DNA of 59,148 nt from an uncultured Clostridia bacterium (lineage in GTDB: Bacteria; Bacillota; Clostridia; TANB77; CAG-508): assembly GCA_947623725.1 (NCBI GenBank), contig CANQHI010000005.1, positions 1 through 59,148 of the forward strand, read 5' to 3'. Shown one piece after another: positions 7,353-59,101 of the stretch (positions within the stretch are counted from its first letter, which is position 1; each line of letters opens with the position of its first letter). Position numbers and translations under genes: made by a program. Below the pieces are notes generated by a model that ran no database searches, was not told the origin of the DNA, and was given only the letters and a program-made list of their open reading frames with translations.

Positions 7353-8792
7353 TTAATTGCTTTCTAATAAAGCATGATACTCTGTTGATTTTTTGTAGTT
7401 TGCTTCAACTTCTTTTTCAGACAATCCTTTACTATATAGCCTTAATGCATAACAGTTTAATTTTGAATAATTCCATGCATAATTTTCGTATTCTTCATTA
7501 ATCCTTCCAATTGTAAAACAATTAAAAGAATTTAAAAGTTCATTTGTGAAAATATCCCATTGTACTTTATTAAAATCTGCATCATACACTTTCTTACCAT
7601 TTATGTAACATTTATAACTGTAAAATTCTCCACTTTTATTAAAACTTGATCCATCACTATAAACCCCATTTTCACTATTCTTATTTTGACTCTTTGAAGT
7701 GTCCAATGTAATCGTTATGTAACAAGGTTTATTAGGCTCAAATTCAGTTTCTGATAAACTATTAACTACATTCCACTGGTACGATTTATGACAATAGTCA
7801 GACAATTCTCTACACTGTTTATATCCACCATTAACAGACCATTCTATACCTGGATTACTTGCATTTCCATTATTATGAACAATCCCAAATCTAAACCATG
7901 ACCACTCATTACTATCTTTAATTCCATAATAGAATAAACCATTACAATATCCATTAAACTTTTCATTATTAGAAATCCAATAATTATTTCCTAGGTTCCA
8001 ACTTCCATAAAATTCAAATGTAAATCCTTGTTTTGACAATGCCTCTTTTTGTTCTTGTTTATCATATTGTATTGTAATATAATCATCAACTCCATCAAAA
8101 TTAAATGATGTACTTGTTAATCCACTTTCATTTGTTCCTTCTTCACTAAAGTTATGTAATTCTACTCCTGTCCCTAATTGTTTCTCAATATCTTCTTTAC
8201 TTTGTCCTGTTCCTTTATCTATTATTGATGAATCTATATTTATTATTAAATTATCTTTTACTGCTAGCATATCTCCTGCTGACCATGATTTATATTTTCC
8301 TTCTTCTAATTGAATTATTTCTCCTGTTTCATAATTTACTAGCCAATTATAATTTGCATTTCCATATCCACTTAATTCTGTTCCTTTTTCTACATAATAC
8401 CAACCATTGTCATATTGTTTTCCAGTATTTTCTACTTTTACTATATGCCAATTATATGAATTTTCTATGTTTTTTTCTTTTAACTCATCTCCTAATCTTT
8501 CCGAGCTTACATTTTCTAAATATTTACCTAATTGTACCGAGATTACATTTTGTCCTAAATATTCTCTTTCACTCTCTAAATTATACTTTTCTACTGTTGT
8601 TTTTGCTCTTTTAAACAATCCATTTTGGCTTAAAGCTGTAGTTAAAGTTACTCCTGTTAATATTAAGAGTATTATTATCGTTATTACTAATGCTACCAAG
8701 GTGATTCCACATTCTTTATAATTTACTTTTCTCATTATTTTTTGCTTTCTTACTGATTCTTTTTTTATAAACTTTATTTTTTTATTCATCAT
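7353..8792 (-). CDS. Pilin-like-anchored protein, paralog 1, with a LamG/concanavalin-like C-terminal region
   Basis: N-terminus is ...RKVNYKECGITLVALVITIIILLILTGVTLTTALSQNGLFKRAK. It resembles a class III (prepilin) signal but has Ala, not Glu, at +5. FNFDGVDDYITI is a typical LamG-like motif. Start chosen at the ATG at 8792 after AAAAGGAGATTTT. Confidence 0.7.
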   Translation of the reverse strand: MMNKKIKFIKKESVRKQKIMRKVNYKECGITLVALVITIIILLILTGVTLTTALSQNGLFKRAKTTVEKYNLESEREYLGQNVISVQLGKYLENVSSERLGDELKEKNIENSYNWHIVKVENTGKQYDNGWYYVEKGTELSGYGNANYNWLVNYETGEIIQLEEGKYKSWSAGDMLAVKDNLIINIDSSIIDKGTGQSKEDIEKQLGTGVELHNFSEEGTNESGLTSTSFNFDGVDDYITIQYDKQEQKEALSKQGFTFEFYGSWNLGNNYWISNNEKFNGYCNGLFYYGIKDSNEWSWFRFGIVHNNGNASNPGIEWSVNGGYKQCRELSDYCHKSYQWNVVNSLSETEFEPNKPCYITITLDTSKSQNKNSENGVYSDGSSFNKSGEFYSYKCYINGKKVYDADFNKVQWDIFTNELLNSFNCFTIGRINEEYENYAWNYSKLNCYALRLYSKGLSEKEVEANYKKSTEYHALLESN

Positions 8793-8842
8793 AAAATCTC
8801 CTTTTATTATCAATACTTTACAAGTAATTTTATACACAAATT

Positions 8843-9039
8843 TTTTTATTAATTAAAAAGCTTAATAAAAAAACTATAAATCTTATAACTCAACTTTTTC
8901 AATGAGTTTATAAAATTTATAGTTTTTTATTTGTTATTAAATTGTAATAATTTTATTTTTCTAAAATCTTGTTAAAATATTATATTTATGATAAATTTTA
9001 TTTATATTCATTTTTATTAAGCTTTTTAATTAATTATAA
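8843..9039. promoter_or_regulatory. Putative invertible segment (switch L1) bounded by inverted arm-core-arm sites
   Basis: Site 8843-8871 is TTTTTATTAA/TTAAAAAGC/TTAATAAAAA. Site 9011-9039 is TTTTTATTAA/GCTTTTTAA/TTAATTATAA. They form a 24-nt perfect inverted repeat. The interior holds hairpin 8868-8928 and the promoter-like TTGTTA-17-TAAATT (8969-8997, + strand). Confidence 0.55.
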
Positions 9040-9065
9040 TATATTTATTTATCTATTTTTATCAA

Positions 9066-10320
9066 TTAATTATCTACTACTAGCTTAAAACTAACAACAC
9101 CATCTGTTTCATTTTTTTCTAATCTATAACCACTTGATGTCAAATCAATAGAAACCATTGGTCGAAGTGAATTTTGTGCACCAACTTCATATCCGATGTG
9201 CAGTACATACATTCGCACCTGCAACTCGATATGCATCAGTAAAATAGAATACAGCTTGTAATCCAAAGTCACAATTATCATCATATAAATGAACATAACG
9301 CCCTGCCAAGTAATAACTAACACCAAAATAATCTAAACCATCCTCTTTTTTTAATAACAAATCATAATATTTAGGATTTATAAATTCACTTTGTCTATTA
9401 AGATAATCATGTCCATAGAATGATTCTCTAAATGTTAAATTACTATTTCCCGTTTCATTATTAGTTTTATATCCATTCTCTTGTTCCCACATCAGGCATT
9501 CTTTATCACTTCCATTCTCTGTACCATCAACCTCATTATATTCATACATCCATTTTGAATCATATTCTTCCCACATTTTAGGATATTTTAGACTTGTATA
9601 TGTTGTTTTACTTCCTCCAAAATGCATCTTTCCTTCATCATTTTCAAACCAACCACTAGGATCATACTTATATTTTCTATAATCATAATTGCTTACCTTT
9701 TGTATATCACTTCTTCTTAAATTTGCTACACTTATTCCATTTTTCATTTTACCATTTTCATCATATTGTCCATAACATTGTCTACATATCTCATTTATTG
9801 CCCATACGCCATTATTATATCCTGTTGCTCCTCTTAATGTTAAGGTTTCATTTGTTGGTCTACTTGATATTAATCTTATTGTCTTTGTATATTTATTATA
9901 ATCCCAGATTCTCCAATCCAAGTCTTCTGTTGTAAATTTTTGATCTCCATTTTCTTCTGCATTTACAATTGTATTACCATCATTATCTTGTTGTGAAGTT
10001 AATCCTGATGTTATACTTTTTATTATAAATGAACTGGTATCATTTTTTTCTATTGGTTCATATCCTTCTACATAACATCCTACATAGTCATTATAATCTA
10101 TTGATATCTCATCTAACTCTTCTGCTATACTATCCAATGCTAATTGTTCTTGTTTTTCTGACTCTTGATATTCTTTTACTGCCTTTTTTGCCATTTTAAA
10201 CAATCCATTTTGCCCTAATGCTGTAGTTAAAGTTACTCCTGCTAGAATCAATAATAATATTATTGTTATTACCAAAGCTACCAATGTAATACCTTTTTCT
10301 TTATAATTTACTTTTCTCAT
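9066..10320 (-). pseudogene. Pilin-like-anchored protein, paralog 2, frame broken near 9193-9195
   Basis: Same N-terminus (MRKVNYKEKGITLVALVITIILLLILAGVTLTTALGQNGLF). Frame A stops at 9187. Frame B (9066..9326) supplies the family C-terminus ...NSLRPMVSIDLTSSGYRLEK..., which matches paralog 3. Removing one base at CAT-CGG-ATA joins them. Confidence 0.7.
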
Positions 10321-10346
10321 CCTTTGCACCTCTAACTTCATTAATT

Positions 10347-10567
10347 TTTTTATTAATCTAAAAACTTAATAAAAAAAATAATTAAACATTTATAGACCTT
10401 GTATTATAGATTCGAAGCTAGAATCCAGTTAAATTTTTTATAAAAATTTAACTAAAATTTTGGTCAATAAAGTTTAATTATTTTTTATTTTATACTTGTT
10501 TAAATATTTATGTTATGATAATATTCTTATATATAAAATTTTTATTAAGTTTTTAGATTAATAATTT
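10347..10567. promoter_or_regulatory. Putative invertible segment (switch L2)
   Basis: Site 10347-10375 is TTTTTATTAA/TCTAAAAAC/TTAATAAAAA. Site 10539-10567 is TTTTTATTAA/GTTTTTAGA/TTAATAATTT. They form a 26-nt perfect inverted repeat. Promoter-like TTGTTT-17-TAATAT with TGn lies at 10496-10524 (+). Confidence 0.55.
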
Positions 10568-10968
10568 TATGGTGCCGGATTAATTTTTATTTCTTTAGGC
10601 TTTATTTTTTTTACATTTTTAGATAATTCATATGTTTGATTCTCATTCCATCTCATAACTTTTATATTTTTATAAATATCAAGTACTTCTTGATACTTAT
10701 CGCGTTCTTCTTCCCAAACTGAATCTGGAATTTTATCAAAAGCATCAAACATTTTTTCAGCTTCTGCTAAATATATCACTTGTTCTTGTGGAGACATTTT
10801 GTCATATTTTTTTGCAAATTCTGCAAGATTATCTAGACTAGCATTTGCTTTAATAAATGTAAAAAAATCTTTAACTTTAATGCCAGCCATTTGTATTTGC
10901 ATAACAGCCATTACAATTAAAATAACTATGAAAATTAATAATAAAAATATTATTGCTAAAATAGTCAT
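10567..10968 (-). CDS. Hypothetical N-terminally anchored protein
   Basis: 133-aa ORF with a hydrophobic N-terminus. No recognisable family. Confidence 0.5.
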   Translation of the reverse strand: MTILAIIFLLLIFIVILIVMAVMQIQMAGIKVKDFFTFIKANASLDNLAEFAKKYDKMSPQEQVIYLAEAEKMFDAFDKIPDSVWEEERDKYQEVLDIYKNIKVMRWNENQTYELSKNVKKIKPKEIKINPAP

Positions 10969-19992: not shown

Positions 19993-20193
19993 CTATTTCA
20001 TTTCAGATTCAGCTTTTTGAATTAATTTCTTAACCATATTTCCACCTATTCTTCCAGCATCTCTTGAAGATAAATCACCATTGTATCCATCTTTTAAAGA
20101 AACACCAACTTCATTAGCTACTTCATATTTAAACTTATTTAATGCATCTGTAGCTTCTGGAACTGCTTTGTAATTGCTGTTTGAGTTTGCCAT
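19993..20193 (-). CDS. Alpha/beta-type small acid-soluble spore protein
   Basis: MANSNSN...LNKFKYEVANEVGV...SRDAGRIGGNMVKKLI is the SASP signature. ATG is preceded by AGGAGGTGAATGAC. Confidence 0.9.
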   Translation of the reverse strand: MANSNSNYKAVPEATDALNKFKYEVANEVGVSLKDGYNGDLSSRDAGRIGGNMVKKLIQKAESEMK

Positions 20194-20385
20194 GTCATTC
20201 ACCTCCTGAATTTCTATTAAAAAAGTTTAAAAATTAATTTAAATAAAATAAATCAATTTTTAATTTTCTTTTTCAATATATATGATGCACATAATTTATA
20301 ATTTTAATCTGGAAATTTCTAGGATTTTTTATTTTACAATTTTTTACATTTTTTATTTTAAATTATTATAAATTTTATAATATTA

Positions 20386-21204
20386 TTAATAACTTGTCCA
20401 ATAATAATATAAAATATTATTATCTATATCATAAACTCCTATTTCCCATCCGGTTGCTTCTTCATCTGTAAAATGATGTTTTTTATATTCATCACTTGTT
20501 CTGCACACTTTTTCATAGTGATAATATCCATTTTCTATTGAAAGTACTTCTTCATTGTATTCAAAATCATCTAATTTTTCATCTTCTAGTCTATTCTTGT
20601 TCCACTTTGGACTTTGTTCTAATGTTTTTATTACTTCTTTTCCTTGTTCATCTGTAAATTGATATGTATAATAATCTAAACCATCACCCTGAGGACCACC
20701 TCTTACACTATATATTTCTCTTGTTTTATAATTATTTGTTTTTATACCTAAAATCTCACTATAATTTTTATGATGATTAAAAGGACCATTTTCAAAATAA
20801 TATAGTTTTGCATTTTTTAAATCAAATATGGCATATCCCTTCTCATAATAATATAAATCTTCTCTATCTATTTCTACTACATAATCATCTCTAATTTCAT
20901 AAAACTCCTTCATTATATATTCATAATATTTATTTTTACTCCATATATCACTATTTTCTAATTGTTTTCTAAAAGTATCCATACTATCACTATAATAGTT
21001 TTTTATTTTATATACCTTATATTTTCCAAACCTGTCAAAACCATATTTCGTACAATATTCTATATTAATATCTTCTATTTGTAATCCCAAGTTTTTATAA
21101 TCTGTGTCACCTTTTATTTTATAAAAAAATATAGATAAATGAGAAATAATTATAACAATTATAATTATTAATAATATATATATAATTATCTTTTTATTTT
21201 TCAT
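20386..21204 (-). CDS. Hypothetical N-terminally anchored protein
   Basis: 272-aa ORF with one TM. Tyr/Glu/Lys-rich with no recognisable domain. Confidence 0.5.
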   Translation of the reverse strand: MKNKKIIIYILLIIIIVIIISHLSIFFYKIKGDTDYKNLGLQIEDINIEYCTKYGFDRFGKYKVYKIKNYYSDSMDTFRKQLENSDIWSKNKYYEYIMKEFYEIRDDYVVEIDREDLYYYEKGYAIFDLKNAKLYYFENGPFNHHKNYSEILGIKTNNYKTREIYSVRGGPQGDGLDYYTYQFTDEQGKEVIKTLEQSPKWNKNRLEDEKLDDFEYNEEVLSIENGYYHYEKVCRTSDEYKKHHFTDEEATGWEIGVYDIDNNILYYYWTSY

Positions 21205-21230
21205 ATTTTCTCCTTGTTTAATAAAAGTTA

Positions 21231-22304
21231 TTATTTTATTACAAAATTATTCTTTTGTACTTTTATTGTAACTTTATATGACTTTATAACTCCATATTTA
21301 CTAGAAACAACTCCAAAATTGTTTAGTATGCTTGAAAATATACTAATTAGTAATGATTTATTAGATGTTACATATTCTTTTAAATCTGTAAAATCTGTAA
21401 AATCATAAGTATCTTCAATTACCATATTTACTTTCCAAGTATTATCTAAGTTTTTTTCAATTTCTATACTTGTTGGAGAACCATGTATAGCAAATAATAA
21501 ATCTTTATTATTAAATTCAATTATACAATCTTCATTATTTTCACTATTATCCTTAAATTTATCTTTTTCACTACAATATTTTTTTATAAGTTCTTTTATT
21601 TTATTATCAAATTCTTCACTTTCTAGTATATCTTCAATAACTTCTTTATCATTAATCAATAAATCTTGTGGTTGCTTTCCAAATAAAGATAATGAATGCG
21701 ATAATAATTTAGCTGAAAGTTTCATATTTGCTAATAATCCTCCAACAACCACAACTTGCCAAAATGTATATTGCATTGCATAAAAAACGGTATAAGCAAT
21801 AGGAGAGTTTTTCTTAGTTAAATCAAATATAAAACTCATACTTTTTATAAAGTTCTCTGCTACATCTTTATCTACTTCTTCCCAATTAGTTTTTTTAGCT
21901 TCTTTTAATAATTCATTAAATTTTTGTGTATAATTAAACAATTTGTATATTTCATTTAGTGAAAACGACATCGTCTCTATTATATTTTTTGAAAAAGTTT
22001 TGATATTTTTTATATCATTAGAAACTTTTTCTTTTACATCATTTAAAGCTTCATAGTTCATCATGTTTAGATACGTTAATGCAATATATTTTTGAGCTAA
22101 AACATATTTTTTCTTTTTACTAAGAAAAAACTTATGATTTTTCCATGCTATTCTAGTACATAAATACAATTCTTTATTCCATATTATTCTAGGTGATTTA
22201 GCAAATCCCAATAATTCATATAAATTATCTAGGCATCCTCTTCCAAACATTTCATATTTATAATTATATGGTCTATTACATAATAAACATCTTTTTTCTT
22301 CCAT
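21231..22304 (-). CDS. Hypothetical protein
   Basis: 357-aa ORF with an N-terminal CLLCNRP...GRGC motif. No family recognised. Confidence 0.5.
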   Translation of the reverse strand: MEEKRCLLCNRPYNYKYEMFGRGCLDNLYELLGFAKSPRIIWNKELYLCTRIAWKNHKFFLSKKKKYVLAQKYIALTYLNMMNYEALNDVKEKVSNDIKNIKTFSKNIIETMSFSLNEIYKLFNYTQKFNELLKEAKKTNWEEVDKDVAENFIKSMSFIFDLTKKNSPIAYTVFYAMQYTFWQVVVVGGLLANMKLSAKLLSHSLSLFGKQPQDLLINDKEVIEDILESEEFDNKIKELIKKYCSEKDKFKDNSENNEDCIIEFNNKDLLFAIHGSPTSIEIEKNLDNTWKVNMVIEDTYDFTDFTDLKEYVTSNKSLLISIFSSILNNFGVVSSKYGVIKSYKVTIKVQKNNFVIK

Positions 22305-22327
22305 TTTTAATACTCATTTCTTACCAT

Positions 22328-22423
22328 TTATTTTTGTTTATTCATTATATTTGATATTTGTTCTTTTAACTCATTTATATAGTTTAATATCTTTGTTAAT
22401 ATTATATTATCTTTACTTTTCAT
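22328..22423 (-). pseudogene. Truncated HEPN/DUF86-like toxin remnant (31 codons)
   Basis: Its ATG overlaps the MNT stop. Translation MKSKDNIILTKILNYINELKEQISNIMNKQK resembles the N-terminus of DUF86 HEPN partners of MNT, then stops. Hand-translated. Confidence 0.4.
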
Positions 22424-22721
22424 ATACTATTACTCCTGTTCTTTCTATTTCCTTTTCAATTTTAGAATTTTTATTTATTTCTATTTTCTCTATTACATCA
22501 ACTTCTTTATTTAATTTTTCTTGTATCTTTCCAACTATTGCATAAAATTTTAATCCTTTAACTTTTCCTTTACTATCTAATAGTATATCTATGTCACTAT
22601 TTTGATTTGGATTTTTCTTCGCATATGATCCAAATAATATCGCTTTTTCAACTTCTGTATTACTAAGTATTTCATATAATATTGCTTTTATTTCATCAAT
22701 TGAATATATTTTTGTTGTCAT
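22413..22721 (-). CDS. Nucleotidyltransferase-domain protein (MNT-type antitoxin-like)
   Basis: ILFGSYAKKNPNQNSDIDILLD is a minimal nucleotidyltransferase motif. Confidence 0.75.
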   Translation of the reverse strand: MTTKIYSIDEIKAILYEILSNTEVEKAILFGSYAKKNPNQNSDIDILLDSKGKVKGLKFYAIVGKIQEKLNKEVDVIEKIEINKNSKIEKEIERTGVIVYEK

Positions 22722-22851
22722 TTTTTTCACACACCTTTCTTTTTATTATTATATCATATTTTATAATATAATTTCTTTTTATAAAGTTCTGATACACTTT
22801 TATTTACTTATTTTCAATTATTTTTTATCTCTTTTCTTATCTTACTATTTT

Positions 22852-24048
22852 TTAATTTATTACACTAGAAATAGGTATAATATAATTCTTTTCATCTATT
22901 TTCATTAGTTTATCATATAAACAAATAATTCCACCATTTCCTATTTTCATATTTGTTTTTTCAAGATGTTTAAAACTTTTTATCATATCTTTTCTAGGAT
23001 TTGCTGTTTTCTTTATTACTAATGGGTATAATGTGTTATTCTTAAAAATAATTAAATCGATTTCTTCCGTTTCTTTATTTCTAAAATGTGATATTTCTAA
23101 ATTTATTCCTTTATTTTCATATGACTTTATAAGTTCTGAAATTACATACGATTCAAAAAAATTGTCTGATAAATCACTCAATTGTAATGTTCTTGCACTT
23201 TCCCAATTTGCTAGATAACAAGCTAATCCTAAATCCATAAATATTATTTTAGGCATATGAGTAAGTCTTTTTATTTTATTTGATGAATATGGTTCTAATA
23301 AATATACAAGTCCTGTACTTACTAATATTGAAAACCAATCTTTAATTGTATTTACTGAAACTCCTACATCATTTGCAATATCTGAATAATTTAAATTTGT
23401 ACCTGTTCTTATTGCAACAGCCCTCATAAATTTTTTAAATGCCTCTACATTGCCTATTTTTTTTATATCTTTTTCTATATATTTGTCAATATATGAATAA
23501 TAAAAGTCATTTCTATCCATATTTTCTATATCATATAATTCTGGCATTCCTCCATTGAAAATTCGTTCAAATATTTCATTTACATCTATATATTTATTCT
23601 GTTTCAGATTATCTGGATCAAAAATTTCTTTTCTTGTATTTCTCATAATTTCGCTATATGTAAAACTATTCATTTTAACTATACCAGCTCTATTTGCAAG
23701 TGATTCTGTAACATTTTTCATAAGATCAAATAATTGAGAACCAGACAACCAATATTGTCCTCTTGTCTTATCCTTATCAACTTTCATTTTTATATATGGA
23801 AGTAGCTCTGGAGCATATTGTACTTCATCAATAAAAAGTGGTGCAGGATATGAATCTAAAAATATTTTTGGATTTTCTTTTGCTTCTCTTCTTAAGATTT
23901 CATCTTCTAATGAAATTTTAGTCATATTTTCTGGTATTACACTTTCAAGCAAAGTTGTTTTTCCAACTTTTCTTGGTCCTGTTACCACTAATACTTTGAA
24001 TGTATCATTAATTTTTTTTATTCGTTCTTTTACCTCTCTTTCATACAT
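22852..24048 (-). CDS. AAA-family ATPase with a DUF4143-like C-terminus
   Basis: VVTGPRKVGKTTLL Walker A. 398 aa, an architecture common in mobile or accessory DNA. Confidence 0.7.
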   Translation of the reverse strand: MYEREVKERIKKINDTFKVLVVTGPRKVGKTTLLESVIPENMTKISLEDEILRREAKENPKIFLDSYPAPLFIDEVQYAPELLPYIKMKVDKDKTRGQYWLSGSQLFDLMKNVTESLANRAGIVKMNSFTYSEIMRNTRKEIFDPDNLKQNKYIDVNEIFERIFNGGMPELYDIENMDRNDFYYSYIDKYIEKDIKKIGNVEAFKKFMRAVAIRTGTNLNYSDIANDVGVSVNTIKDWFSILVSTGLVYLLEPYSSNKIKRLTHMPKIIFMDLGLACYLANWESARTLQLSDLSDNFFESYVISELIKSYENKGINLEISHFRNKETEEIDLIIFKNNTLYPLVIKKTANPRKDMIKSFKHLEKTNMKIGNGGIICLYDKLMKIDEKNYIIPISSVIN

Positions 24049-24093
24049 TTTTTTATTCCCCCAAATAACATATATTTATATTTTATATTTTCG

Positions 24094-24159
24094 TTGCAAA
24101 AAAGTCAATATTATTATTGCAAAAAAGTCAATATGTTTGCTTAAAAAAAGTCAAATATT
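24094..24159. repeat. Three direct repeats with 23-bp periodicity upstream of the ATPase gene
   Basis: ttgcaaaaaagtcaatat at 24094 and 24117, and ttgcttaaaaaaagtcaaatat at 24137. The GTCAA cores lie at 24104, 24127 and 24150. Confidence 0.8.
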
Positions 24160-24259
24160 ATATTTCATATTAGACATTTATTTCATTACAAAAAAAAATT
24201 TAAACTACTATACTTTTTAATTTATAGCAATTTAAATTTTTCCATATATAAATTATATT

Positions 24260-25189
24260 TTAAGCTAAAATTTTTGCTTCAATATTTCTAATTTTATATT
24301 TTCCATTTTCTTCAATAAAATCATATAAGCTTTTATCTAAGCTGTCACTGTTTTGTTTTAAATCAGTTGTATAATAAAAATTAATTTTGTCTATTTTTAC
24401 GCCATTTGTAACTAAAGCTTTAAAAGTTTCTGCCATGTGTCTTTCATCTTCACATATAAAAACAAGTTGTGGTATCGAAATGAAATCTGAATCTCCAGGA
24501 TTAAAATTATCATAAAAATCTTTCCATAAATTCATTCTTTCGACTAATCTTTTTTCCCAATTTTCATTTCTTCTAACTACTTCATATACAAAACTTATTT
24601 TTCTATTATTTGCAACTAAATCAATACTTAATGTAGGTTTAAACTGTTTACTAAGAGTTTTTGCTTGAATTACTGGTTTTAGTTTATAATCTGAAAAAGT
24701 TTTTACTTTTCTCATATATGCAATAACTAATTGATTTCCAGCAAGTTTTTTCTTTATCATTTCAACAGGTTTTGCATTATCACTTGGTTGCCATTTGCAT
24801 TCTACCTCTCTTGATGTAAGCAAATATTTTCCCATCTTCTCCATGCAGTAAACTCTATATATTCCACTTCCTTCTGGTGATGTAAAATAATATCTTGTAA
24901 GTATTTTGCTTCTAATTAATTGGTCTAATTTATTGTTTAATTTATCTTGAGTTTTTATATCTGCTTTTTGAAGTTGTAATAATTGAAACATTTGTCTTGA
25001 TGTTAAAAATTCAAATTTATTTATTAATTCTAAAATTTGAAAATGTATTTCATTTATATGTCCTACATTTATCTTCTGTATAATCTGATTCATTGAGACA
25101 TAACCGTCTTTTCCATCAAATACTTTTATCTCCCCTTCTCTCATTCTAAAAGGTGAGACTGTTGTTTTAATTTCATTATCTGCTAACAT
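24260..25189 (-). CDS. Replication-relaxation family protein (plasmid/ICE-type)
   Basis: 309-aa ORF whose N-terminal winged-helix-like region and overall pattern resemble the replication-relaxation family. ATG follows AGGAGGAAAAA. Confidence 0.55.
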   Translation of the reverse strand: MLADNEIKTTVSPFRMREGEIKVFDGKDGYVSMNQIIQKINVGHINEIHFQILELINKFEFLTSRQMFQLLQLQKADIKTQDKLNNKLDQLIRSKILTRYYFTSPEGSGIYRVYCMEKMGKYLLTSREVECKWQPSDNAKPVEMIKKKLAGNQLVIAYMRKVKTFSDYKLKPVIQAKTLSKQFKPTLSIDLVANNRKISFVYEVVRRNENWEKRLVERMNLWKDFYDNFNPGDSDFISIPQLVFICEDERHMAETFKALVTNGVKIDKINFYYTTDLKQNSDSLDKSLYDFIEENGKYKIRNIEAKILA

Positions 25190-25323
25190 TTTTTCCTCCT
25201 ACAAAAAATTATTTATAGTTTTAGTACTATTTTTTAATTACATCAATTAATTTAATTAAAAATAGTATACTCACATTTTTATTATATCACTTATGTCAAC
25301 AAGATACAATACTTATATTTATT

Positions 25324-26097
25324 TTAATTTTCTGATACAATACTTAGTTTTATTTTCTTTTTCTCAGGAATGATTTTTTTTACTTTTACATTTACATTTT
25401 GACCATATTTTATATCACTATTATATTCACACAATCCAACTAAATTAGGCTTAAGTTCAATAAAAATTCCATCTTTATTTTTTGTATATTCTTTTGCTAT
25501 TCCTTGAACAATGCTTCCTTCTTTTATATCTTTAATATTTTCTTCCCAACTGCCAAGCATATCTTTATATGATAAATAAAATTTTTTATTTTCTTTATCT
25601 ATTTCTTTTATTTTTACTTTTATTTTTTGGCCTATTTTCAATTTTTCTTCTGGTGATTTCATTCTTGATACTGAAATATCATTGATATAAAGTAGACCTG
25701 TTGAACCTCCACCTATTTCAACAAAGGCTCCATAAGGTTTTATATTCCTTACAATTCCATTAACTACATCTCCTTCTGATAATTCATTTATCACCCAAAA
25801 AAGACTTTCATCTTTTACTTTTTTTCTTGATAAATTACATATCTTCTGAGCTTCATTAACTTTATCTACTTTAAACTGAATATAATTATTTCCTTTTAAA
25901 ATTTCGCCTAATTCATCACTTGGAACTATTCCCTTTATGCTATTTCCTAAATCAATATAGGCATTATGCTTTCTATCAATATTAGTTATCTTTCCACTTA
26001 ACGTAATGTTGTTATCTGAAGCATTTTTTAAATCTTTAATAGAATATTTAATTTCTTCTTGATTCCAGCCTTCTGGAATAAATCTTTGGTATATCAT
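25324..26097 (-). CDS. S1 RNA-binding domain protein
   Basis: Repeated S1-like segments (GDVVNGIVRNIKPYGAFVEIGG, GSIVQGIAKEY...GIFIEL). Confidence 0.7.
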   Translation of the reverse strand: MIYQRFIPEGWNQEEIKYSIKDLKNASDNNITLSGKITNIDRKHNAYIDLGNSIKGIVPSDELGEILKGNNYIQFKVDKVNEAQKICNLSRKKVKDESLFWVINELSEGDVVNGIVRNIKPYGAFVEIGGGSTGLLYINDISVSRMKSPEEKLKIGQKIKVKIKEIDKENKKFYLSYKDMLGSWEENIKDIKEGSIVQGIAKEYTKNKDGIFIELKPNLVGLCEYNSDIKYGQNVNVKVKKIIPEKKKIKLSIVSEN

Positions 26098-34909: not shown

Positions 34910-36202
34910 CTAATTATATTTAATTAATTTGAATTTCACAGTTTCATCTTCTTCAACTTTTTCTAAATCGTATCCACTAGATATTAAGTTGATACTAACT
35001 ATTGGGCGAAGTGCACTTCCCTGACACCAAACCTGATTCCAAGTCTCAATCATAGACCTACCTCCTATATCTTCCGAAGTGATAAAACCATTACTCCCCT
35101 CTACCGTACATATACCAAACTCACCATGATCCACAAATAAATGAGTATATCGACACGAAAGCCAGTAAGTCATATAATGCTTGTCAAATAAGATATCCTT
35201 ATATTTCTCATCTTTGAATTCTTCGTTCGAATATTTATGCCCGATACTACTCGATTGTTTTAGTTCCACATTATCACAACTTTTTTGGGCTGTATCAACT
35301 TTCATATTATCATTTTCTAGTTCCCATATCAAGCCTTCTTTATCTTCTCCCACTCCTTCTCCATCTTTATATTCATAAGACCACTCTTCATCTTTTTCCC
35401 ACATTACTGGATAATAACAATTACTTTCATATTTATGAGTACTTCCATAAGATATATCTCCACTTGAATCATATTGCCACCCATTCTCTCTATTTCCAAG
35501 CTTATGCTTATACTGGGTAAAATCATAAGTACTTACATTTTGTATATCACTTCTTTTTAAATTTGCTACTGATATTCCTCTTTTCATTTGATTATTTTCA
35601 TCATATTGTCCATAACATTGTCTACATATTTCATTTACTGCCCACACTCCGTTATTATATCCTGTTGCTCCTTTTAATGTTAATGTTGCCTCTGTTGGTT
35701 TATCTGATATTAATCTTATTGTTTTTGTATATTTATCATAATCCCAGATTCTCCATTCTAATTCTTCTGTTGTAAATTTTTGATCTCCATTTGTTTCTAC
35801 ACCATCAATTGTATTACCATTTTCACCTTGATTTGAAGTCACTCCTGATGTTTCACTTTTTATTATAAATTCACTTCCTGTTGTTTTTCCTGTTGGCTCG
35901 TATCCTTTTACATATGCTCCTACATAATCATTATAATCTATTGATATTTTTTCCATCTCTTCTGCTATACTATCCAATGCTGATTGTTCTTGTTTTTCTG
36001 CCTCTTGATATTCATTTACTGCTTTTTTTGCCATTCTAAACAATCCATTTTCACTTAATGCTGTATTTATTGTTATTCCTGCTAATATTAATAGTATTAT
36101 TATGGTTATTACTAGTGCTACTAATGTGATTCCTTTTTCTTTATGATTTATTTTTCTCCTATTGTGCATTTTATTTTCTTTTACATTATCCTTATTTTTC
36201 AT
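34910..36202 (-). CDS. Pilin-like-anchored protein, paralog 3 (intact counterpart of paralog 2)
   Basis: ...HKEKGITLVALVITIIILLILAGITINTALSENGLFRMAKKAV... with C-terminal YWLSCRY...ALRPIVSINL. ATG follows AAAGGAGAACTAAC. Confidence 0.75.
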   Translation of the reverse strand: MKNKDNVKENKMHNRRKINHKEKGITLVALVITIIILLILAGITINTALSENGLFRMAKKAVNEYQEAEKQEQSALDSIAEEMEKISIDYNDYVGAYVKGYEPTGKTTGSEFIIKSETSGVTSNQGENGNTIDGVETNGDQKFTTEELEWRIWDYDKYTKTIRLISDKPTEATLTLKGATGYNNGVWAVNEICRQCYGQYDENNQMKRGISVANLKRSDIQNVSTYDFTQYKHKLGNRENGWQYDSSGDISYGSTHKYESNCYYPVMWEKDEEWSYEYKDGEGVGEDKEGLIWELENDNMKVDTAQKSCDNVELKQSSSIGHKYSNEEFKDEKYKDILFDKHYMTYWLSCRYTHLFVDHGEFGICTVEGSNGFITSEDIGGRSMIETWNQVWCQGSALRPIVSINLISSGYDLEKVEEDETVKFKLIKYN

Positions 36203-36317: not shown

Positions 36318-36346
36318 ATTTTATCAATACTAAAGTATTAAGTCAA
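36318..36346 (-). promoter_or_regulatory. Promoter-like element between switch L3 and gene 3
   Basis: The minus strand has TTGACT, a 17-nt spacer and TAAAAT with an upstream TGn. The same block is conserved at 58850-58878. Confidence 0.45.
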
Positions 36347-36372: not shown

Positions 36373-36569
36373 TTTTTATTAAGTAATAAACTTAATAAAA
36401 AAGCTATAAATTTTATAATCCATATATTTCAACGAATTAATAAGATTCATAACTTTTATTTTTTACTAATTTGTAATAATTTTCTTTATCTATATTATTG
36501 CTTAACTGCTTATATTTATTATATAAATTTATTTATACTATTTTTATTAAGTTTATTACTTAATTATTT
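36373..36569. promoter_or_regulatory. Putative invertible segment (switch L3)
   Basis: Site 36373-36401 is TTTTTATTAA/GTAATAAAC/TTAATAAAAA. Site 36541-36569 is TTTTTATTAA/GTTTATTAC/TTAATTATTT. They form a 24-nt perfect inverted repeat. Promoter-like TTGCTT-18-TATAAA lies at 36498-36527 (+). Confidence 0.55.
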
Positions 36570-48703: not shown

Positions 48704-49543
48704 TTAATCTATTAGCTTTTTTAATTCATTTTCCTCTATTCCAACTAATTCTGATATATAACTAATATCTTTTCCTTCTTTAATTAATTTTTTTGCTATT
48801 TCTAACTTTCCTTTTTTATAACCATATAGTTCTATTGAATGTTCATCTCTTATTGCTTTTTCTCTTAAAAATTGCAATCTCTCCATCTTCTCATCTTCAC
48901 TTAATTCTTTTACTGTTATTACACATTTTTCTATTTCTTTATTTTCTTTCATTATCTCCTTAACCTCCTTTGAGTTCGGATTATCTAGAAATAGCATCCA
49001 TTGTGCTTTCTTATTTTTCTTGTCTTTTTCATACTCTTTGAGTGCTTTCCTTAAATTTATTATATTTATTTCTATTAGCTCTGTCAATATCTTTTCACGA
49101 TTTTTCGTCTCTATTAGTTTCCACTTTGTTTCCATTTCATCTATATCTTTTAGTTCTTCTATTTCAAAATCTATTATTGCTATTAATACTGTCCTTTTTA
49201 CATTTTCATATGGCTCTCCTCTTTTAAATTGATCTGAATACAGTCTTGTTGCATAATATAATATTCTCTCTATAAAATTTCCTTTATTTAATAATTGTAC
49301 TTCTACATCTACTTTCTCTTTATTATTAATTTCCAGTTCTAAGTCTAATATTCCTAATTTATCATTCGGTCTATTTCTTATTAATTCTTTATCTTCATTT
49401 ATTTTTATACTTTCTATTTTTTCTTCTAATAGTACTTCTGCAAATGCTTTCGTTATTTCTGGATTGTTTTTACTAAATAAACTTTGAAAAACAACATCTA
49501 TCTTTGGTATTAATAAATTATTTTTTCCATTTGTCATAGGCAT
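48704..49543 (-). CDS. Rpn/YhgA-like PD-(D/E)XK nuclease family protein (putative transposase-like)
   Basis: IPKIDVVFQSLF...LGILDLELE...VDVEVQL...YYATRLY pattern. Confidence 0.7.
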   Translation of the reverse strand: MPMTNGKNNLLIPKIDVVFQSLFSKNNPEITKAFAEVLLEEKIESIKINEDKELIRNRPNDKLGILDLELEINNKEKVDVEVQLLNKGNFIERILYYATRLYSDQFKRGEPYENVKRTVLIAIIDFEIEELKDIDEMETKWKLIETKNREKILTELIEINIINLRKALKEYEKDKKNKKAQWMLFLDNPNSKEVKEIMKENKEIEKCVITVKELSEDEKMERLQFLREKAIRDEHSIELYGYKKGKLEIAKKLIKEGKDISYISELVGIEENELKKLID

Positions 49544-57799: not shown

Positions 57800-58792
57800 T
57801 TAATCTTTGATTGCAGATTTTGGAATCGAAATTACAGGTCGTACACCTTCCTTATTATGGTCAAACGTAGCATTATCGAAAGTCCCTATTATACAACGTA
57901 TTGTACACACATATTTATAATTATTATCATTATTATTATCATTACCTCCACGTGCTGCCAACCAATAACCCCACACATCGTTCGTATCACCTAGAAAAAA
58001 AACCTTGTTACCCAAAATAGCTTCATTTCTTACATATACGCTAAATTCTTCACTTTCCTCACCTATTTTATACTTAACCTGCTGAGAATCGTCTTTTATT
58101 ATTGTTAACTTATCTTCTACATTACTTCCATATCTTTCATTATACGCACTTTCTAGCTGTTCTGCAGTTGGACCTCCTGCTGCTGTTACTTCTACCTCTA
58201 TCCCTTTTTCCTTTAATGCCTTTTTAACTCCATTTGCAATGCTTGTCCAATTACTCGCTCCAGTCAAATAATTTATTAATTGCTCTCTATTACCACTTAT
58301 AACATTCCCATACACTACAATTCCACTATGCATTATACCTTTTACATATGGTATTGCATTTTCTTCTAAATAGTCTGAATATATAAAATATACTTTCCCT
58401 TCACTTTCATCTGTATAATAATATTGCCAACCATGTTCAAGAACTTTACCGTTTACTATAACATCACCTAAGTTTACCGTTTGACTATCGTCTGGTTTGT
58501 TGTCTACGTTTTTTGGTATTTCTATTTTTTCTTCTGATGGTGGTACCGGTGGCTCTGGTGTTTTATCTCCATCTACTATTTTGTCTATCTCTTTTTCTAC
58601 TTCTCCTAATTTTTCTGCCTCATCTGATTCTGATTCCTTATAATTTTCTCCTGCATATTTTGCCCTTTGAAATAGTCCATTTTGTCCTAGTGCTGTTGTT
58701 AATGTTACTCCTGCTAATATTAATAGTATTATTATTGTTATTACTAATGCTATTAATGTTATTCCTTTTTCTTTATAATTTTCTTTTCCCAT
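57800..58792 (-). CDS. Pilin-like-anchored protein, paralog 4
   Basis: MGKENYKEKGITLIALVITIIILLILAGVTLTTALGQNGLFQRAK... with C-terminal YWLAARG...EGVRPVISIP. ATG follows AAGGGGGAAAATCAAAAG. Confidence 0.75.
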   Translation of the reverse strand: MGKENYKEKGITLIALVITIIILLILAGVTLTTALGQNGLFQRAKYAGENYKESESDEAEKLGEVEKEIDKIVDGDKTPEPPVPPSEEKIEIPKNVDNKPDDSQTVNLGDVIVNGKVLEHGWQYYYTDESEGKVYFIYSDYLEENAIPYVKGIMHSGIVVYGNVISGNREQLINYLTGASNWTSIANGVKKALKEKGIEVEVTAAGGPTAEQLESAYNERYGSNVEDKLTIIKDDSQQVKYKIGEESEEFSVYVRNEAILGNKVFFLGDTNDVWGYWLAARGGNDNNNDNNYKYVCTIRCIIGTFDNATFDHNKEGVRPVISIPKSAIKD

Positions 58793-58849: not shown

Positions 58850-58878
58850 ATTTTATTATTTATAAAGTATTAAGTCAA
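58850..58878 (-). promoter_or_regulatory. Promoter-like element between switch L4 and gene 4
   Basis: The minus strand has TTGACT, a 17-nt spacer and TAAAAT. It is homologous to 36318-36346. Confidence 0.45.
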
Positions 58879-58904: not shown

Positions 58905-59101
58905 ATTTTATTAAGTAGAAAGATTAATAAAAAAGTATAAAATCTTGCAATTCATTTATTCCAATGATTATGCAAAATTTTATACTTTACTTTTTTACGA
59001 TTTTGTAATAATTTTTATCTTTATTTTTTTCTTATAATTGACTATATTATGCTATATTTTATATATATAATTTTTTTATTAATCTTTCTAATTAATAATA
59101 T
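58905..59101. promoter_or_regulatory. Putative invertible segment (switch L4)
   Basis: Site 58905-58933 is ATTTTATTAA/GTAGAAAGA/TTAATAAAAA. Site 59073-59101 is TTTTTATTAA/TCTTTCTAA/TTAATAATAT. 25 of 26 positions are inverted-repeat matches. Promoter-like TTGACT-18-TATATA lies at 59038-59067 (+). Confidence 0.5.

Follow-up and report, generated by a model that had tools for sequence, protein, structure and literature searches.

Candidate invertible promoter switches with common arms and switch-specific spacers upstream of pilin-like genes in uncultured gut Clostridia

In a contig of 59,148 nucleotides (nt) from an uncultured Clostridia bacterium (CANQHI010000005.1; the whole stretch analysed is hereafter called the window), a short element named L1 was found directly upstream of a gene for a pilin-like protein (gene 1, G1). 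L1 is probably an invertible promoter switch (inverton), one of four in the window and part of a family present in a clade of uncultured, spore-forming gut Clostridia of low guanine plus cytosine (GC) content; we give this reading a probability of about 0.78. A homologous segment in related bacteria is physically inverted between natural samples, and we infer that L1 itself still flips. L1 and its target comprise the following features:
8843 to 8871: gene-proximal site of L1, TTTTTATTAA-T / TAAAAAG / C-TTAATAAAAA, with palindromic arms and 0 mismatches to the generic arm pattern.
8872 to 9010: 139-nt putative invertible segment of L1, whose present orientation is read as OFF.
9011 to 9039: distal site of L1, with a core that reverse-complements the proximal one exactly and a degenerate outer arm (TTAATTATAA).
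7353 to 8792, minus strand: G1, 479 amino acids, predicted to be controlled by L1; its pilin-like N-terminus is conserved and its C-terminal domain is divergent.

When the sequence was re-read, the two sites named in the first-pass annotation were matched exactly (TTTTTATTAATTAAAAAGCTTAATAAAAA at 8843-8871 and TTTTTATTAAGCTTTTTAATTAATTATAA at 9011-9039). The perfect inverted repeat of 24 nt that it described is present as well (8848-8871 and 9011-9034 are exact reverse complements separated by 139 nt), and the proposed distance of 50 nt to the start of G1 agrees with an ATG at 8792, which is preceded by an AAGGAG ribosome-binding site. The placement of the element immediately 3' of the stop codon of a second gene (gene 2, G2) stands only in part: it fits the shifted frame of G2, which ends at 9066, 26 nt from the distal site, the in-frame stop being at 9187. 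The same design had been said to recur at three other paralogous genes, and one site pair was indeed detected upstream of each of G2, G3, and G4. All four genes are located on the minus strand, each with its pair just upstream. The three additional genes and switches are:
9066 to 10320, minus strand: G2, a paralog of G3 (approximately 60% identical), frameshifted near 9190-9230; target of switch L2.
10347 to 10567: switch L2, with sites at 10347-10375 and 10539-10567, repeat arms at 10350-10375 and 10539-10564, spacer CTAAAAA, and 163 nt between the repeats.
34910 to 36202, minus strand: G3, 430 amino acids, a pilin-like paralog.
36373 to 36569: switch L3, upstream of G3, with sites at 36373-36401 and 36541-36569, repeat arms at 36378-36411 and 36531-36564, and spacer TAATAAA.
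57800 to 58792, minus strand: G4, 330 amino acids, a pilin-like paralog.
58905 to 59101: switch L4, with sites at 58905-58933 and 59073-59101, repeat arms at 58905-58934 and 59072-59101, and spacer TAGAAAG.

These repeats are not due to chance. When up to three mismatches were allowed, the L1 24-mer had eight matches in the window, forming four inverted pairs; the mean in shuffled sequence was 0.02, and none of 100 shuffles reached eight. A window scan with the generic pattern TTTATTAA-N9-TTAATAAA returned the eight switch sites and three further matches with two mismatches, compared with a chance expectation of 2.6. Since these extra matches are about as many as chance would give, there are no orphan sites in the window. 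The four elements are homologous over their full length and not at their ends alone, and the segment between the sites is approximately 120-165 nt long. In all four, the arms of the proximal site are perfectly palindromic (0 mismatches) and the outer arm of the distal site is degenerate, and each switch has its own spacer (TAAAAAG in L1, CTAAAAA in L2, TAATAAA in L3, and TAGAAAG in L4). The sole arm-to-arm mismatch of L4 is at the base adjoining the outer arm. L1 and L2, which flank G2, are 1.3 kilobases (kb) apart.

A broader alignment was made from 14 distinct switches in gene orientation, comprising the four of the window and ten from related genomes and metagenomes, which represent at least five genomes or metagenome populations (loci outside the window carry three-digit labels such as L001). 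Pairwise identity was 94-100% in the arms, 53-56% at the nine central bases, and 53% in the segment interior. The partner sites of one switch were complementary in 97.6% of cells. Changes on both sides were confined to the nine central columns (34 cells), a value reached in none of 500 shuffles, and controls in which the sites were slid fell to 38-55% paired. Unpaired cells cluster at the first central base, which adjoins the outer arm. Four switches (L4, L002, L012, and L084) have mismatches that can be read, and in these the position is occupied by G in the gene-proximal site and by T in the distal one; the base keeps to its flank and is therefore not exchanged. The last of the central bases is C in most cases, and with it the inner arm is extended into the mirror image of TTTTTATTAAG. 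The spacer of 7-8 nt that is left is identical between partners in 13 of the 14 switches, the remaining one (L101) having a single mismatch.

Thus, what was found at these sites is a pair of invariant inverted arms, TTTTTATTAA(K) and (C)TTAATAAAAA, around an A-rich spacer of 7-8 nt, in line with two inverted arms around an asymmetric overlap of 6-8 base pairs (bp). The arm-core-arm architecture of the first-pass annotation agrees with arms that are invariant and a core that is variable yet matched within each pair, but the 10-9-10 division that it assigned fits worse than 11-7-11. The best description of the site is 11-7-11, or an overlap that does not exceed 8 bp.

Inversion was pursued through homologs because the window's own proteins had no exact match. 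In an exact-sequence look-up, G1 and G4 gave no match, and the sole contig nearly identical to G3 (L089, 987 nt) does not include the upstream region. In a scan of species-representative genomes, the gene family was found to occur widely among uncultured gut Clostridia, represented by metagenome-assembled genomes from rabbit, chicken, and human. However, a scan for perfect repeats upstream of 80 loci detected the switch in only a few relatives; most homologs from other species have none, and the switch is therefore not universal in the gene family. It had been suggested to look for relatives which keep the gene and lose the paired sites. The outcome favored a switch, as the syntenic locus L001 keeps both 24-nt sites without any change (24/24), with an interior that is 64% identical and a protein that is 54-58% identical. 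L001 adjoins dodecin and spoVA genes, as L3 does.

All copies recovered in this way had a promoter directed away from the gene. We therefore searched metagenomes with a pattern that only the flipped state can match, consisting of the promoter motif, then the site, then a coding start at the right distance. One contig was returned (L088), in which TTGCTT-N17-TGcTATATA faces the gene and the hairpin of the segment adjoins the distal site. A homolog search with the L088 protein identified the intact gene (P0122), which is carried by four other assemblies. When L088 was compared with L097, L099, and L100, the flanks and both sites were alike and the 146/147-nt interior was reverse-complemented: 143 of 147 positions are identical when the L088 interior is flipped, and there is no alignment in the direct orientation. 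The left flank is identical at 295 of 310 positions, and approximately 60 nt from the proximal core onward are identical. An nhmmer profile of the 14 switches matched L088 on the strand opposite its gene (E = 8e-16) and 46 other copies on the gene strand; an earlier profile of ten switches had missed L088. The expectation that such sites would lead to inversion rather than excision was thus borne out for the homologous switch, whose segment is flipped in place between unchanged flanks.

Two features were predicted within the L1 segment:
8868 to 8928: hairpin with an A-run on one flank and a T-run on the other, adjoining the gene-proximal site; predicted two-way intrinsic terminator.
8969 to 8997, plus strand: predicted extended -10 promoter, with -35 TTGTTA at 8969-8974, TG at 8989-8990, and -10 TAAATT at 8992-8997; it points away from G1.

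The hairpin looks like an intrinsic terminator that could work in both directions. Its folding energy is -22.5 kcal/mol (z -7.4) when the gene strand is folded, compared with -18.5 kcal/mol (z -5.3) for the other strand. The hairpins of L3, L4, and L002 resemble it, and the z values range from -3.8 to -7.4. Such AT-rich hairpins are missed by the terminator rule of at least three G-C pairs, and conservation and folding were used here in place of consensus scans. The most conserved motif of the interior is TATGnTA, which is predicted to be the core of an extended -10 promoter. In 9 of 10 switches, its distance from the far segment end is 22-25 nt, and a TTG usually precedes it by 17 nt. All four promoters of the window are oriented away from their genes, which presumably corresponds to OFF. 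No promoter-like sequence was found within the 50-nt leader of G1.

A reasonable mechanism can be proposed from these features. Each site would be built from the arm TTTTTATTAA(G/T), an A-rich asymmetric spacer of 7-8 nt, and the arm (C)TTAATAAAAA, the two sites being inverted, and the segment between them would carry a two-way terminator-like hairpin and an extended -10 promoter whose start is predicted to lie approximately 5-7 nt within one site. A site-specific recombinase, with its gene in another part of the genome, would bind the arms, exchange strands within the spacer, and flip the segment. In the present orientation, the promoter would fire away from G1 and the hairpin would lie directly before it. 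Because the promoter is outward, the hairpin is in front, and the leader is promoterless, G1 should be OFF and shielded from read-through from G2. After inversion, the promoter would face G1 through a leader of approximately 85 nt (ON) and the hairpin would end the G2 transcript. Since the arms are common and the spacers are different, one enzyme could serve all four switches without recombination between L1 and L2, and each paralog would vary independently. In this mechanism, we infer promoter and terminator activity, the ON and OFF assignment, and the class of the recombinase from sequence features.

Two observations on the surroundings of the promoter may be added. First, G3, G4, and L012 have a common leader between the proximal site and the start codon, which contains TTGACT-N17-TAAAAT (window positions 36318-36346 and 58850-58878 on the minus strand; approximately 3930-3960 in L012) and is missing from G1 and G2; this sequence is a possible switch-independent promoter. 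Second, at some loci the promoter in the OFF state faces a divergent gene: dodecin and spoVAC/AD at L3 (36565-37484) and L001, and, at L097 (483-900), a gene of the TauE family at a distance of 70 nt. It is possible that OFF for the pilin-like gene could be ON for a neighbor.

The conservation of the repeats could also be explained without a DNA switch. One such explanation is that they act in RNA only, the arms pairing in the transcript as a long stem which controls termination, processing, or translation of G1, with no inversion of the DNA. Consistent with a stem, the element sits in a 5' region and the arms co-vary in a helix-like manner (97.6% paired, with nine positions changed on both sides). 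However, G-U pairs make up just 3 of 336 cells, wobble pairs do not account for the mismatches, and a stem does not require arms that are internally palindromic and invariant. In addition, neither predicted transcript would hold both arms, given the outward promoter and the T-run hairpin between them, and the homologous segment of L088 was found physically inverted in DNA. Rfam models gave no match anywhere in the window at the gathering score, and within 8700-10700 there was also none at E <= 1. We consider an RNA-only role to be very improbable.

The element also has properties of a miniature transposable element, i.e., a unit of 200 bp with terminal inverted repeats, several copies per genome, and PD-(D/E)XK genes annotated as "transposase" near some loci, so that it might have been inserted near the genes by chance. 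Its distribution argues otherwise: profile copies were found only upstream of pilin-like paralogs, with fixed position and gene-relative orientation, and there were no copies elsewhere in the 59 kb or in the flanks of the 80 other loci. Moreover, no target-site duplications are visible at the L1 borders, the spacer differences between copies are matched within each copy, and the difference between L088 and L097 is an in-place inversion, which is neither an insertion nor an excision. A chance insertion of this kind is hardly credible.

A third explanation accepts the flipped copy but regards it as a rare accidental recombination that was fixed in one strain, the repeats being kept for another reason, for example as binding sites of a dimeric regulator. 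Palindromic arms would suit a dimeric DNA-binding protein, and 46 of the 47 contig-level copies share one orientation. On the other hand, a regulator operator needs neither two inverted copies 120-165 nt apart nor a variable spacer matched between them, and the conserved promoter of the flipped copy is aimed exactly at the gene, with its distance from the site unchanged. RecA-dependent recombination is very inefficient on 18-24 bp. Contig ends at switch borders in six assemblies are also as expected of mixed orientations or repeats. We regard accidental inversion of regulator-binding repeats as unlikely.

With regard to these contig ends, six metagenome contigs start or stop at or inside a switch (starts in L006, L007, L098, and L100; ends in L092 and L093). 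L092 and L093, with approximately 30x coverage, stop exactly at the proximal end of the second switch. Such breaks fit branching of the assembly graph caused by mixed orientations or by repeats.

Several results weigh against an active invertible promoter. L1 and all other copies in the window were seen in one orientation only, and among approximately 47 contig-level copies, 1 is flipped (L088) and approximately 46 are OFF, so switching may be rare or strongly biased to OFF. The widespread relatives P0152, P0138, P0127, P0047, and P0014 were OFF in every assembly, which gave no second ON/OFF pair, and P0054 and P0151 have no switch. The flipped state comes from a single contig of a metagenome assembly, judged at contig level; mis-assembly of L088 is unlikely because its perfect repeat is only approximately 18 nt long, below the usual k-mers of assemblers. 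The switch of L101, with a mismatch inside the spacer, may be locked. As for the promoter and the terminator, consensus scans of the window, whose GC content is 26%, found no more sites than in shuffled sequence, and since G3 and G4 have a second promoter-like element past the switch, the switch may modulate their expression rather than gate it. Finally, no gene for a tyrosine or serine recombinase was found in the 59-kb window (20 open reading frames (ORFs) were searched against Pfam and the remainder were inspected by eye, with no Phage_integrase or Resolvase), nor was any recombinase found within approximately 4 kb of six related switch-bearing loci.

Nevertheless, the geometry of the sites, by itself, points to a tyrosine recombinase as the enzyme that would act on them. 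Identity of the spacer within a pair, together with an asymmetric spacer of 7-8 nt, is a classic signature of tyrosine recombinases, as in lox, FRT, dif, and lambda att. Hin/Gin-type sites, in contrast, exchange strands at a central 2-bp step. A serine invertase site is disfavored because the odd spacing (9 nt from ATTAA to TTAAT, or 7 nt between the 11-nt arms) puts the dyad center on a single base; no central 2-bp step of the Hin/Gin/Mpi type is seen, the argument being a geometric one only. On the evidence described here, the RNA stem, the transposable element, the regulator operator, and the serine-invertase site were rejected as candidates.

It is still conceivable, although clearly less probable than a tyrosine recombinase, that the inversion is real and is carried out by an enzyme of another class, such as a serine invertase, a DEDD recombinase of the Piv/IS110 type, or a PDDEXK_2 (Rpn-like) protein. 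None of the switches examined had a recombinase of any class nearby, and PDDEXK_2 genes are located within approximately 2 kb of 4 of approximately 12 distinct switch-bearing loci, compared with 1 of approximately 74 pilin-like loci that lack a switch. Phylogeny and the many copies of these genes, however, confound this association, and matched asymmetric spacers of 7-8 nt are the tyrosine-recombinase signature, their odd length (7 or 9 nt) with a dyad center on a single base being unsuited to exchange of the Hin/Gin type. We know of no site-specific action of Rpn proteins. That a multicopy PDDEXK_2 protein is the flipping enzyme, with arm-7-nt-arm sites as the substrate of a new kind of site-specific invertase, is quite unlikely. 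A single remote recombinase that serves many switches, with heterospecific spacers preventing cross-recombination, is more likely than such an invertase. In known systems, the remote master recombinase may be of the serine type, such as Mpi of Bacteroides fragilis, or of the tyrosine type, such as RecV of Clostridioides difficile (PMC5903667).

The PDDEXK_2 genes near switches (Rpn-like nuclease or "transposase") were observed in L015 (2744-3391), L002 (1-123), L088 (2630-2959, the same as L098 1242-2177), and L101 (1-806, the same as L111). They are multicopy, because contigs often break inside them. The window has a PDDEXK_2 gene of its own (48704-49543), which is away from any switch.

A second switch-like design was also observed upstream of homologous genes in other Clostridia genome bins. 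It has the arms TTCTTAGAG and CTCTAAGAA and a 7-nt spacer (TATTGAA or TTAATTA), with 162-167 nt between the sites (approximately 1935-2130 in L080, 750-940 in L076, and 3660-3860 in L013). Equal geometry with other arms suggests another recombinase specificity.

L1 follows the known logic of invertible promoters, as in fimS, B. fragilis, and C. difficile. Because invertible promoters are well known and have been catalogued by the thousand in gut bacteria, no new category is opened by it. What differs from known switches is the sequence of the site, the combination of common arms with switch-specific spacers, the built-in two-way terminator, and the family of target genes.

By host, the RecV-dependent switches of C. 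difficile are the closest relatives. The cwpV and flagellar switches act after transcription start, through terminator formation or Rho, from a fixed upstream promoter. Unlike these, the window switches appear to have the promoter inside the flipped segment. Moreover, the repeats of the C. difficile switches are unrelated and differ wholesale from one switch to another, whereas the window switches have common arms and differ in the spacer alone. Both systems occur in members of class Clostridia and have several short invertible segments upstream of surface or motility genes (cwpV/Cdi1, flagellar/Cdi4, and others), no recombinase gene beside the switches, and strongly biased population states (PMC5903667; PMC7446863).

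Similar to L1, fimS of Escherichia coli, which is inverted by FimB/FimE, is a short invertible segment that contains the promoter of a pilus or adhesin, with short inverted repeats, half-sites on both sides, and a predominant OFF state. It has 9-bp repeats and adjacent recombinase genes, and requires IHF and Lrp. L1 differs from it in its 24-nt perfect repeats, the lack of an adjacent recombinase gene, the built-in terminator hairpin, and the presence of four to several copies per genome.

The promoter inversions of B. fragilis (by Mpi or the Tsr tyrosine recombinases) and the invertons catalogued by PhaseFinder and DeepInverton likewise comprise many promoter segments before paralogous surface loci (PMC11892184; PMC11602134). 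With B. fragilis, the window switches have further in common a gut commensal host, combinatorial surface variation, and probably one master enzyme; the phylum and the repeat motif are different, and the promoter of the window is of the sigma-A type. For Bacteroides and the catalogued inverton systems, no description of switch-specific spacers between common arms was found. The Clostridia-like genomes of hCom2 have few invertons (median 3), and two new inverton motifs are described for Firmicutes_A (PMC11892184; PMC11602134).

In geometry, the sites are similar to lox, FRT, and dif, which consist of two inverted arms of approximately 11 bp and an asymmetric spacer of 7-8 bp, with identical spacers in the partners and inversion when the sites are in inverted orientation. 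As in heterospecific lox variants, different spacers on the same arms should not cross-react. The likeness is one of geometry only; the arm sequences are unrelated and no Cre/Flp/Xer-like protein is linked to the window sites.

The first-pass annotation knew of no described switch family with this arm consensus. A full-text search that combined the arm sequences with the word "invertible" returned nothing relevant, which agrees with that statement and is a weak check of it. Since relatives occur in many assemblies of human gut metagenomes, the large inverton catalogues could already hold these loci.

If the L1 family is indeed a set of invertible promoters, this uncultured lineage of gut Clostridia would vary at least four paralogous surface proteins independently, which have a common N-terminal anchor and very different outer domains. 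Such a system would parallel, in a Firmicute, the combinatorial surface variation that is known from Bacteroides. Common arms with switch-specific spacers would be a natural equivalent of engineered heterospecific lox sites; because the spacers are switch-specific, switches as close as 1.3 kb to each other could exist side by side while the intervening gene is neither deleted nor inverted. The short, well-defined, AT-rich sites offer a simple search pattern for both the family and the recombinase. The two-way terminator would make the module a compact and insulated genetic toggle.

The proteins predicted to be controlled have a conserved N-terminus (..KEKGITLVALVITIIILLILAGVTL.. / ..NYKEKGITLVALVITIIILLILAGVTLTTALGQNGLF..), which is encoded by only four genes of the window, G1-G4. 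Their original label, "pilin-like," holds only loosely: G3 and G4 match the Pfam N_methyl family below threshold (18.3 and 18.5 bits, compared with 21.2 bits; E approximately 0.002), and G1 and G2 gave no match. The N-terminus reads KG-ITLVA, in which the usual Glu5 of type IV pilins is absent. Searches of NCBIfam, PDB sequences, and PDB folds with the controlled proteins gave no informative match, and no pilus assembly genes were found in the window. The AlphaFold (AF2) model of G3 has a predicted local distance difference test (pLDDT) score of 85, and is thus confident, with a globular domain at approximately residues 95-430 and an N-terminal helix of low confidence; it had no PDB fold match at E <= 0.001. 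The G3 family comprises over 2000 members; among its 120 best matches, none has a listed Pfam domain. In some relatives, the outer domain carries leucine-rich repeats of the BspA type.

G2 is split across two reading frames on the minus strand (9066-9326 and 9187-10341), with the break near 9190-9230 relative to G3 and no homopolymer there; it is either a pseudogene or the result of an assembly error. In another part of the window, the stretch at 20000-26000 has a GC content of 22-24% and contains ORFs of unknown function, an AAA_14/DUF4143 ATPase, a small nucleotidyltransferase-like ORF, and a weak match to Replic_Relax. This stretch may be a mobile island.

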